Shown piece after piece: positions 49,509-51,998 of a stretch of 64,000 nt of DNA (position 1 is the stretch's first letter; every line of letters begins with the position of its first letter). This DNA is from an uncultured Pseudomonadota bacterium (GTDB taxonomy: Bacteria; Desulfobacterota; Desulfobulbia; Desulfobulbales; Desulfocapsaceae). Under the pieces are notes generated by a model, which ran no database searches, was not told the DNA's origin, and was given only the letters and a program-made list of their open reading frames with translations. Made by a program: the position numbers and the translations under genes. The stretch spans positions 46,651 to 110,650 of the forward strand of contig CAVZOB010000011.1 in assembly GCA_963776835.1 (NCBI GenBank), read 5' to 3'.

Positions 49509-51842
49509 TTATTCTTTTTTATCATCAGTAGGTTTCCATACCGGCCCGGTGGCCGTGTCGATGACCTGGATTCCCTGGCGCAGCAGTTCATCGCGTGCAT
49601 CATCGGCGGTCTGCCAGTCTTTTTTTGCCCTGGCTTTTTCGCGGCGGCAGATCAGGGTGTTCATGGCCGGGGCCAGGGGACAGCCCTGCAACCGGAAAAT
49701 CTGCAAGATCTGGTTGATCTTTGTGAAGCTCTCCAGAATATATTTTTTCTGGTCATGGTCAAGGTGATTGACGTGGAGGATGGGGTTGACGGTATTGATA
49801 AATTTATAGATTGCTCCCAAGCCCTTCGAGACGTTGAGGTCATCGTCCATGGCCTCGAAAAACTGCTCGCTCATGGTGGAGACAAAAGCGGCGATCTCCG
49901 GATGGGCTTTGCCCGGCGGCAGACAGAGAAGTTTGCACACGAATTCATCAATACGGCGCAGGGCGGTGCGGACGTTGATCAGTCTTTTATAGGAAAAATT
50001 CAGCGGTTTGCGGTAGTGGACCGAGAGCAGCATGAAGCGCACCTCGCGCGGAGTGAAGCCGCGCAGGAGCAGATCGTTCAGGGTCACCACATTACCAGCC
50101 TCGGTCGACATCATCTTGCCGTCCACCAGCAGCAGTTCGGAGTGCAGCCAGTATTTGGCCAGAGGCTTGCCGGTCAGGGCCTCGGCAATGGCGATCTCGT
50201 TTTCGTGGTGGGGAAAGATCAGGTTCCGGCTGCTGGTGTGGATATCGAGAGTATTGCCCAGATAACGGGTGGACATGGCGGAACATTCGATATGCCAGCC
50301 CGGCCGCACATTGCCCCAGTCGGTCTCATAAAAAATCCCTTTCTTCAACTCCGCCAGGGTGGAGCGCTTGAGCAGGGTGAAGTCGCGGGGGTTGTCCTTT
50401 TCATAGTTGTCCAGATCAACGGTTCGGCCCAGCTGGATCTTGCTCAGGTCAATGCCGGACAGGCGGCCGTAGCGCTTGAACTTGGAGATATCAAAGTAGA
50501 TGGAGCCATGTTTTTCATAGGCAAAACCCTTGTGGATCAACTCGTGGCTGATCTCGATCATATCGGCGACATGCTCCGAGGCCTTGGGGTAGCCGGTGGC
50601 CCGTTTGACACCCAGGGCATCGATTGCCTCCATGAAACCGTCAATGTATCTGCTGGTGAATTCGGCAAGCGAGACCCCGGCCTTGCTGGCGCCGTCGATG
50701 GTATTGTCGTCCAGATCAGTGAAGTTCATATAGGACTTCACTGTCAGTCCCTTGCTTTCCAGGTAGCGGGTGATCAGGTCGGTGACGATGAAACGGCGGC
50801 AGAGGGAGAGGTTGGGTGGTTCATAGGCGGTGGGACCGCAGGTGTAAAAGCTGACTTTCCCTTCAACCTGGGGAGTGAAGACCTCTTTCTGCCTGCTCAG
50901 GGTGTTGAAAAAACGCAGTTGCGATTTCTTCTCGGAGCTCTGGGTCTTGCGGGTGAAGAGGGGGGTGCTCAGATAGCGCTCGCCGCTGTCCGGGAGCAGG
51001 GTGACGATGAAGCCCTCCTCCAGTTTCTCGGCCAGATTGATGGCGGCAAAGATGGCCGCGCCGCTGCTCATGCCCACCAGCAGCCCCTCCTTGCGGGCCA
51101 GCATCCTGGCCATGTGAAAGGCGTCTTCATCCGCAACATTGACGATCTCGCTGGCCCTTGACTTGTCAAAGATACCGGGGCGATACGATTCCTTCATGTT
51201 CTTCAGCCCCTGGATCTTGTGGCCGAGATAGGGTTCCACCGCAATGATCCGCACCTGGGGGTGGTGCTCGGAAAACCAGGCATACAGTCCCATCGCCGTA
51301 CCCGAGGTGCCGAGGGTGGCCACGATATGGGTCACCTGCCCCTCCGTCTGCCGCCAGATCTCCGGAGCGGTGGTCGCGTAATGGGCCTGCCAGTTGGCCT
51401 CGTTATTAAACTGATCGGTGAGGAAATAGCGGTCCGGGTGCTCACGGGCCAGGGCGTAGGTCTTTTCAATGGCCCCATCGGTGCTTCTGTGGGCCGGAGT
51501 GAGCAGGATCTCGGCGCCATAGGCCTGCATGATCTTGCGGCGCTCCAGCGATGCGGCCTCGGACATGATCAGCTGGCAGCGGTAGCCTTTGGCCGCGCAG
51601 ACCATGGCCAGCCCGATTCCCGTATTGCCGCTGGTGGCCTCGAGGACGATCTTGTCGGGGGTCAGTTCCCCGCTCTTTTCGCCGGCCTCGATCATAGCAA
51701 GGGCGATCCGCTCTTTTACCGAGCCGCCGGGGTTGGAGGACTCCAGCTTGCCATAGAGACGAACCTGGGTATCGGGGCACAGCCGATTGATCCGGATCAG
51801 GGGGGTATTGCCAATGGCCTCTAGGACTGAGTTATAGAGCAT
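49509..51842 (-). CDS. Fusion protein: cysteine synthase (PLP, CysK/CysM-like) + cysteinyl-tRNA-synthetase-like domain with degenerate HIGH/KMSKS
   Basis: 777 aa, intact. Residues 1-300 carry GGSVKERIAL, TSGNTGIGLA and GTSGT (cysteine synthase fold). Residues about 310-777 are collinear with CysRS (FYTCGPT, RPGWHIECSAM, FPHHENEIA, anticodon-domain-like tail). HIGH is replaced by NLSL, HGGGxDL by HTSSRNL and KMSKS by KMMST. Confidence 0.85.
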   Translation of the reverse strand: MLYNSVLEAIGNTPLIRINRLCPDTQVRLYGKLESSNPGGSVKERIALAMIEAGEKSGELTPDKIVLEATSGNTGIGLAMVCAAKGYRCQLIMSEAASLERRKIMQAYGAEILLTPAHRSTDGAIEKTYALAREHPDRYFLTDQFNNEANWQAHYATTAPEIWRQTEGQVTHIVATLGTSGTAMGLYAWFSEHHPQVRIIAVEPYLGHKIQGLKNMKESYRPGIFDKSRASEIVNVADEDAFHMARMLARKEGLLVGMSSGAAIFAAINLAEKLEEGFIVTLLPDSGERYLSTPLFTRKTQSSEKKSQLRFFNTLSRQKEVFTPQVEGKVSFYTCGPTAYEPPNLSLCRRFIVTDLITRYLESKGLTVKSYMNFTDLDDNTIDGASKAGVSLAEFTSRYIDGFMEAIDALGVKRATGYPKASEHVADMIEISHELIHKGFAYEKHGSIYFDISKFKRYGRLSGIDLSKIQLGRTVDLDNYEKDNPRDFTLLKRSTLAELKKGIFYETDWGNVRPGWHIECSAMSTRYLGNTLDIHTSSRNLIFPHHENEIAIAEALTGKPLAKYWLHSELLLVDGKMMSTEAGNVVTLNDLLLRGFTPREVRFMLLSVHYRKPLNFSYKRLINVRTALRRIDEFVCKLLCLPPGKAHPEIAAFVSTMSEQFFEAMDDDLNVSKGLGAIYKFINTVNPILHVNHLDHDQKKYILESFTKINQILQIFRLQGCPLAPAMNTLICRREKARAKKDWQTADDARDELLRQGIQVIDTATGPVWKPTDDKKE

Positions 51843-51854
51843 GAGTATTCCTTA

Positions 51855-51964
51855 GGAATTACGAATTACGAATTAGAAATTACGAATGAATTACGAAATG
51901 ATGAAGTGAATTCCAAGGTGTTTTTAATTCATAATTCATAATTCGTAATTAGTAATTCGTCATT
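51855..51964. repeat. Imperfect palindrome built from AATTACG heptamers
   Basis: The left arm is GG(AATTACG)2AATTAGAAATTACGAATGAATTACG. The right arm is made of CGTAATT-type units (ATAATTCGTAATTAGTAATTCGT). It lies between the DUF721 stop and the fusion-gene start. Confidence 0.7.
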
Positions 51965-51998
51965 GATCGGTCAAGTCCTTTCTCCGCCGGAAGCCCCC

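Follow-up and report, generated by a model that had tools for sequence, protein, structure and literature searches.

A conserved fusion of cysteine synthase with a cysteinyl-tRNA synthetase-like domain lacking canonical ATP-site motifs in Desulfobacterota

The recruitment of aminoacyl-tRNA synthetase (aaRS) paralogues as non-catalytic modules is a known theme. HisZ, a paralogue of histidyl-tRNA synthetase (HisRS) that lacks an anticodon domain, is the regulatory subunit of the ATP-phosphoribosyltransferase HisG, and in GCN2 a HisRS-like domain reads tRNA to control an enzyme. Here we describe a conserved family that is new to this theme: a pseudo-enzyme of the cysteinyl-tRNA synthetase (CysRS) type fused to a cysteine synthase. 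The case under study is a 777-residue protein encoded in a 64,000-nucleotide stretch of DNA (hereafter the window; contig CAVZOB010000011.1, positions 46,651 to 110,650, of assembly GCA_963776835.1) from an uncultured member of the Desulfocapsaceae in the Desulfobacterota. Like HisZ and GCN2, it couples an aaRS homologue without catalytic motifs physically to an enzyme, in its case with a possibly regulatory role; unlike them, it draws on a class I CysRS rather than a class II HisRS, joined in cis, and in contrast to HisZ it has kept the anticodon domain. No description of a CysK-pseudo-CysRS fusion was found in the open-access full-text literature searched.

Other CysRS paralogues in non-standard roles are the mycothiol ligase MshC and, in the same phylum as the fusion, CysRS*. 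As far as the summary of Mukai 2017 given in PMC9437257 goes, CysRS* of Desulfobacterales lacks the anticodon domain and is coupled to selC*/selB*. MshC and CysRS* are ATP-dependent ligases without an anticodon domain, whereas the fusion presents the opposite arrangement: its ATP site is gone and its anticodon domain remains. Against TIGR03447, the model for MshC, it reaches 189.8 bits (cut-off 485.1), and, unlike CysRS*, it has no adjacent selB-like or selC-like genes. Canonical bacterial CysRS (CysS, EC 6.1.1.16; 1LI5/1LI7/1U0B; 8QHP) shares with the C-terminal half of the fusion a full-length collinear fold, the Zn ligands, the cysteine pocket, the SC-fold motifs HYR and MDDD(F/L)N and the anticodon contacts. 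The fusion differs from it in the loss of HIGH, HGGGxDL and KMSKS, in a longer block within the CP domain and in its N-terminal CysK/CysM domain, and it is a second copy, placed in a clade apart from the housekeeping CysRS that its carriers also encode. With CysK and CysM (2JC3, 2BHS, 2Q3B) the N-terminal half has in common fold type II and all motifs for pyridoxal phosphate (PLP) and the substrate loop; a difference from these enzymes is a C-terminal extension of 470 residues.

Architecture and motif states of the fusion protein

The gene is a single intact open reading frame (ORF), and Pfam, NCBIfam and Foldseek agree with an earlier, sequence-only reading of the window in assigning a CysK/CysM-type N-terminal half and a CysRS-collinear C-terminal half to its product. 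Pfam places PALP at residues 7-285 (E 9e-72), tRNA-synt_1e (PF01406) at 323-623 (E 4e-88), DALR_2 at 660-716 and CysS_C at 723-763. In NCBIfam the N-terminal half reaches 364.7 bits against cysKM (TIGR01136; cut-off 344.15) and passes neither the cysK nor the cysM equivalog cut-off, and the C-terminal half reaches 387.9-389 bits against cysS (TIGR00435; cut-off 340). Because the latter passes an equivalog cut-off, annotation pipelines and public records name relatives of the protein cysteine--tRNA ligase. Foldseek matches the C-terminal half to CysRS structures with TMt values of 0.93 (8qhp) and 0.82 (the tRNA complex 1u0b) and the N-terminal half best to CysM (TMt 0.94-0.97), then to CysK (0.89-0.92), at 42-47% identity in the fold alignments; no solved structure spanning both halves came up in this search.

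The N-terminal half looks like a working enzyme. It carries the PLP-binding lysine K43 (in GSVKER), the Asn loop at residues 69-75 (TSGNTG), GTSGT at 178-182 and MSSGA at 258-262. Family-wide residue counts here and below are columns in an alignment of 52 diverse fusions, in which the corresponding motifs GS[VI]K[DE]R, EA[TS]SGNTGI, GT[TS]GT and MSSGA are invariant (52/52) and the CysK half as a whole is 55-73% identical. We predict on these grounds that this half is a catalytically competent cysteine synthase of the CysK/CysM type.

The C-terminal half presents a different picture, which we read by alignment to the canonical CysRS of the host genome and to CysRS structures in the PDB. The zinc/cysteine pocket is kept, as the sequence-only reading had held: C335 (in TCGPT), C520, H545 and E549 are the equivalents of the E. 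coli Zn ligands Cys28, Cys209, His234 and Glu238, and G336, T375 and W516 of the cysteine pocket are retained as well. The ATP-site signatures are degenerate. The earlier assignments of NLSL to HIGH and of HTSSRNL to HGGGxDL stand; that of KMMST to KMSKS was right about the loss and wrong about the register, the motif aligning one residue further on with MMSTE, so that both lysines are gone. Across the family, the first position of HIGH is N in members of the host's order and H in 31/52 fusions, the first two glycines of HGGG are replaced by T or S in 37-38/52, and the second, catalytic lysine of KMSKS is kept in none of the 52, with Arg in 22 and various residues in the others. All four Zn ligands are present in 35 of the aligned proteins, identity in the C-terminal half falls to between 33 and 68%, and TIGR00435 scores run from 463 down to 141 bits. 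This comparison shows a gradual decay of the ATP site across the clade, to which some lineages add decay of the Zn site. The losses are no artefact: identical motif states recur in 14 congeneric genomes, at a ratio of nonsynonymous to synonymous substitution rates (dN/dS) of ~0.05. We infer that the pseudo-CysRS half is unable to activate cysteine with ATP.

The host does not lack the housekeeping enzymes. Its assembly (3.13 Mb, 90% complete) contains three CysRS-like genes, namely a canonical one, the fusion and a third paralogue taken up below. The canonical cysS, whose absence from the genome would, on the sequence-only reading's own terms, have counted against it, lies on contig C5 and encodes 492 residues with HIGH, HGGGQDL and KMSKS intact (548 bits), so the fusion is not needed for charging tRNA-Cys. 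A stand-alone cysK, directly downstream of a cysE-like gene, is 47% identical to the N-terminal half; both halves of the fusion are thus paralogues of housekeeping genes. The genome has one tRNA-Cys, of ordinary type (GCA, U73), and one tRNA-Sec. The same coexistence holds elsewhere, a stand-alone cysS above the cut-off accompanying the fusion in 51/52 diverse carriers and in 58/59 of all carriers checked. We rejected the possibility that the fusion is the sole CysRS of the lone exception (G196): a canonical cysS is present in a congener and, at family level, in each of the six other genomes, which makes the absence an assembly gap.

The central claim of the sequence-only reading, that the protein is probably something other than a canonical tRNA ligase and may serve to bind, sense or channel cysteine on the enzyme that makes it, is therefore supported by the separate cysS, by losses fixed under purifying selection and by the absence of the catalytic KMSKS lysine from every member of the clade. 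In its narrower form, that of a selected, non-charging pseudo-CysRS, the claim is in our judgment highly probable. The whole clade bears the automatic name cysteine--tRNA ligase for an activity that, judging from its motifs, it almost certainly does not have, and this misnaming distorts both aaRS gene counts and reconstructed cysteine pathways in the genomes that carry it.

Distribution, selection and retained tRNA contacts

The fusion is present in 36/41 relatives at the level of the order, having been lost in 5/41, and in 160/401 evenly sampled genomes of the phylum (~40%; 99/255 genera), where full length is retained. Named records with full-length matches include Desulfopila, Candidatus Desulfobulbus rimicarensis, Desulforapulum autotrophicum, Desulfatibacillum, Desulfocurvus and metagenome-assembled genomes of Desulfovibrionaceae, as well as Desulfotalea psychrophila, Desulfocapsa and Desulfoprunum. 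In a FastTree phylogeny of 188 CysRS and CysRS-like sequences, the fusions and several stand-alone sequences form one clade (support 99*), to which the canonical CysRS of these genomes do not belong. For both stand-alone members that were looked up, a PALP gene lies 2-4 nt upstream, so the pair also occurs in split form. Common descent in a single clade, the adjacency of the split forms and a CP block common to both point to selection for the physical coupling of the pseudo-CysRS to CysK.

Three further observations concern the fusion as a gene. One CysK-CysRS fusion (P0125; 768 residues, L081 4001-6307, GCA_048628415.1) has the same order, PALP then CysRS, and differs in having canonical motifs (HIGN, HTGG-IDL, KMSKS); because it lies outside the clade and has no CP block, it arose independently, and it is possibly a genuine bifunctional enzyme. 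In one complete genome of the host's order (G040:C1:2736763-2739056) the fusion appears broken or frame-shifted near residue 595, with overlapping matches to residues 6-596 and 594-770. The open frame around the fusion is longer in L019 (G208:C12; 1403 residues stop to stop), L034 (G183:C100; 929) and L027 (G324:C14; 885), a hint of additional N-terminal extensions or of genes lying in frame upstream.

Selection on the C-terminal half is strong. Pairwise NG86 estimates over 15 congeneric genomes give a dN/dS of 0.063 for the CysK half and 0.050 for the CysRS-like half, compared with 0.095 for the canonical CysRS of the same genomes; a half that is more constrained than the essential CysRS is neither an artefact nor a relic. 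The linker is the only relaxed segment (0.21). The lowest values belong to the CP block (residues 461-512; 0.028) and to residues 513-625, which hold the 'dead' motifs together with the Zn site (0.031), and the anticodon domain stands at 0.060. A rival explanation, that of a decaying remnant of a duplicated cysS riding on a useful cysK copy, deserves next to no credit: stepwise motif decay across lineages and the five losses among 41 relatives would suit it, and it is opposed by a dN/dS below that of the essential CysRS, by the retention of full length in 160/401 genomes and by invariant anticodon contacts and CP block.

Which parts have been held most constant is informative. E. coli CysRS contacts the GCA anticodon through Arg427, Trp432, Asp436 and Arg439 (PMC13449415). 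Residue mapping to E. coli CysRS identifies R738, W743, D747 and R750 as their equivalents in the fusion protein, and the columns are conserved throughout the family as R/K, aromatic, D and R (52/52 in each), even in members without Zn ligands and without any ATP motif. The residues that read the anticodon of tRNA-Cys are thus retained, and binding of tRNA by the C-terminal half is predicted. The second constant feature is the clade-specific block in the CP domain, with the consensus GxTVDLDxYEKDNPxDFTLLKRxTLxELKxG....TxWGN, four residues longer than its counterpart in canonical CysRS; fused and split members of the clade have it in common, and neither canonical CysRS nor the independent fusion P0125 has it. 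Judged by the alignment, the anticodon-contact set and the CP block, not the cysteine pocket, are the most constant features of the C-terminal half. An AlphaFold2 model built from a 58-sequence alignment has a mean predicted local distance difference test (pLDDT) score of 89.3, mostly above 90 in the PLP domain, a predicted template modelling (pTM) score of 0.60, and pLDDT below 50 at the linker (298-307) and at residues 474-477 of the CP block. High conservation combined with low model confidence is typically seen in surfaces that become ordered when a partner binds, and the CP loop may be one.

Possible functions of the CysRS-like half

We posit that the C-terminal half is a non-charging module for tRNA-Cys and cysteine whose role is to regulate or to target the cysteine synthase joined to it, a proposal that we put forward tentatively and at somewhat less than even chances. 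The pseudo-CysRS half would bind tRNA-Cys and, in the host lineage, also cysteine or the cysteinyl end (A76) of Cys-tRNA; the CP-domain block would couple the occupancy of these ligands to the activity or the location of the PLP domain, and cysteine synthesis would thereby be kept in step with supply and demand as the real CysRS experiences them. Such a control logic would resemble that of HisZ with HisG and of the HisRS-like domain of GCN2. The family is plausibly an ancient natural case in which an aaRS has become a reader, without catalysis, of its tRNA, in the host also of its amino acid, and has been joined to the enzyme that makes that amino acid. If the pseudo-CysRS does regulate CysK, bacteria would have in it an equivalent, at the level of the enzyme, of GCN2- or HisZ-type sensing. 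The graded series from near-intact to decayed pockets, all with apparently intact anticodon readers, offers a comparative system for asking which ligand matters.

Several results weigh against this proposal. All-against-all ORF clustering over 52 loci found no conserved gene neighbour, the best neighbour clusters occurring in at most 8/52 loci and looking, by sequence, like housekeeping genes (thymidylate kinase, MurJ), and searches upstream of the gene, in the window and at 14 diverse loci, detected no riboswitch or T-box. In the structural model, a pTM of 0.60 and a disordered linker provide no fixed inter-domain contact that would back allostery. At least one Zn ligand is lost in 17/52 lineages, so cysteine sensing cannot be the function of the whole family. 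At the other end of the series, 15/52 members have retained His at the start of HIGH, the first lysine of KMSKS with Arg at the second, and the Asp of GxDL; with ATP motifs still partly intact in these, the ancestral form may have been a weak synthetase. Finally, the tight constraint on the 'dead' pocket within the genus (dN/dS 0.03) would also fit some other catalytic activity.

Part of this evidence could be accommodated by a scaffold or channeling adaptor that works without allostery, tethering the synthase to tRNA-Cys or the translation machinery, stabilizing the CysK dimer, or acting as a chaperone or buffer for tRNA-Cys or Cys-tRNA-Cys, and leaving CysK activity unchanged. Anticodon contacts that remain invariant where the pocket is gone, a flexible predicted geometry between the domains and a gene set among housekeeping genes with no partner are what such an adaptor would lead one to expect. 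A simple hand-over is made less likely, however, by the competition for one anticodon that would arise between pseudo- and real CysRS, and the constraint on the pocket and the CP block within the genus exceeds the needs of a passive tether; we consider this role unlikely, if worth keeping in view.

Constraint of that kind would suit a new, ATP-independent chemistry, in which the remodelled pocket would take Cys-tRNA-Cys or cysteine, for example as a cysteinyl transferase, and might act on the product of the PLP domain. Pocket, Zn ligands and replaced motif residues are all tightly constrained in the genus (dN/dS ~0.03), the substitutions bring in Ser, Thr and Asn (NLSL, HTSS, MMST), the residues for tRNA recognition are retained, and MshC is a precedent for a CysRS paralogue recruited to other chemistry. 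Against this, the replaced residues vary across the clade and a Zn ligand is missing in 17/52 members, leaving no common catalytic constellation, and the gene has no biosynthetic neighbourhood. We regard the idea as rather improbable, and a specific version of it as slightly more so, namely that the pocket is an ATP-independent active site whose cysteinyl donor is Cys-tRNA-Cys, recognized through the anticodon domain, and which would make a cysteine-derived product together with the PLP domain, as a thiol or peptide synthase that depends on tRNA. The analogy is with cyclodipeptide synthases, enzymes of class I aaRS-like type that lack HIGH and KMSKS and use aminoacyl-tRNA.

It is decidedly improbable that the C-terminal half has remained a functional cysteinyl-tRNA synthetase with atypical motifs, fused to cysteine synthase for substrate channeling. 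Its TIGR00435 score of 387.9 against a cut-off of 340, the intact pocket, anticodon domain and overall fold, and the existence of an independent fusion with HIGN and KMSKS intact all speak in its favor, as does the fact that some arginyl-tRNA synthetases (ArgRS) lack a canonical KMSKS. In this protein, however, all three ATP signatures have changed together, KMSKS having no lysine left, HIGH lacking its first His and GxDL its Asp; a canonical cysS is present in 58/59 carriers; and the scores of the C-terminal halves drift from 463 to 141 bits across the clade.

A PLP-dependent cysteine persulfide (CysSSH) synthase of the CARS type in the C-terminal half would require neither ATP nor tRNA and would suit a phylum that lives on sulfur chemistry. 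Persulfide synthesis by E. coli and mammalian CARS is ATP- and tRNA-independent and survives mutation of Zn ligands, and it depends on the lysines of the KIIK (K73/K76) and KMSK (K266/K269) motifs (PMC5660078). These lysines are replaced in the fusion protein, by N380 and D383 and by M577 and T580 respectively, and the retained anticodon contacts would be left unexplained; we reject this candidate as very improbable. Synthesis of cysteine on tRNA from Sep-tRNA, by a route of the SepRS/SepCysS type, was likewise rejected: SepRS was not found in the host genome (best TIGR00470 match 19.7 bits, cut-off 380), and the invariant carboxylate-binding Asn loop of the CysK half argues for a free amino-acid substrate.

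Genomic surroundings and other CysRS-like genes

Features of the fusion gene and of the neighboring region are collected in Table 1.

Table 1. Positions of the fusion gene, its domains and motifs, and nearby features in the window
Feature	Residues	Position	Strand	Basis or remark
Whole fusion gene	777 plus stop	49509..51842	(-)	Single intact ORF
CysK/CysM-type PLP O-acetylserine sulfhydrylase domain	5-297	50952..51830	(-)	Pfam PALP, TIGR01136, motifs, fold
Short linker, TRKTQSSEKKS	298-308	50919..50951	(-)	pLDDT <50; dN/dS 0.21
CysRS-like Rossmann catalytic body with CP insertion	309-625	49968..50918	(-)	PF01406, E 4e-88; fold
Degenerate HIGH, N344-L-S-L	344-347	50802..50813	(-)	Alignments
Clade-specific CP-domain block, GRTVDLDNYEKDNPRDFTLLKRSTLAELKKGIFYETDWG	472-510	50313..50429	(-)	Top conservation within the C-terminal half
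HIECSAM, with Zn ligand C520 (E. coli Cys209)	517-523	50274..50294	(-)	Alignments; W516 just upstream is E. coli Trp205
HTSSRNL (535-541, in place of HGGGxDL), then FPHHENE	535-549	50196..50240	(-)	Zn ligands H545, E549
KMSKS position, M577-M-S-T-E	577-581	50100..50114	(-)	phmmer alignment; both lysines gone
Helical bundle/DALR_2 region	626-722	49677..49967	(-)	Pfam DALR_2; helices in model
CysS_C anticodon-binding alpha/beta domain	723-770	49533..49676	(-)	Residue mapping to E. coli CysRS
5' spacer before the fusion, (AATTACG)n heptamer palindrome		51843..51998	(-)	No Rfam family match
TsoR-type ArsR/SmtB regulator flanking selD		42470-42829	(+)	NF045707, 140 bits, above cut-off
selD		43397-44449	(+)	TIGR00476, 312 bits; ~5 kb from fusion
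TauE/SafE-family exporter flanking selD		44436-45239	(+)	
Two tandem, overlapping tyrosine-recombinase (phage integrase family) genes		46294-48292	(-)	Between selenium cluster and usp/fusion

A scan of the locus for promoters and terminators stayed at background. The palindromic spacer upstream of the gene was considered as a gene-specific leader and rejected: its 14-mer CGTAATTCGTAATT occurs 20 times across the 3.1-Mb assembly, which marks it as a dispersed genomic repeat resembling repetitive extragenic palindromes. None of the 52 loci has a tRNA-Cys gene next to the fusion; the linked tRNAs are those for Met, Arg, Ser, Pro, Leu and others.

The sequence-only reading had also hinted at a link to selenium or selenocysteine, given the cluster around selD nearby, and this part did not survive. 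The two integrase genes and, in divergent orientation, a usp gene separate selD from the fusion; closeness to selD is not a conserved trait, no selenium gene recurs among the neighbors of the fusion in the 52 other loci, and neither selB-like nor selC-like genes adjoin it. We therefore reject a selenium link of the fusion and regard its nearness to the cluster as coincidental. GC content is ~0.45-0.49 between 44 and 50 kb, compared with 0.54-0.57 over 50-56 kb. The selD gene is itself a selenoprotein gene, with an in-frame TGA at 43448-43450 inside TCG-U-AAKIGP, as a result of which a plain ORF call begins only at 43523.

The third CysRS-like gene of the host lies outside the window (C1:453208-454452, plus strand; L003 1429-2745) and encodes 438 residues. 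At 303 bits it falls below the cysS cut-off; two of its Zn ligand positions are changed (WNVQDPAM, YRHHDYN), and it belongs to a long-branch clade of its own with a sporadic distribution (4/41 relatives), for which reason it was rejected as a partner of the fusion. It recalls CysRS* of Desulfobacterales, and no selB*- or selC*-like genes adjoin it. With HIGN and KMSKS kept and the anticodon-binding domain absent, this paralogue inverts, so to speak, the arrangement seen in the fusion.

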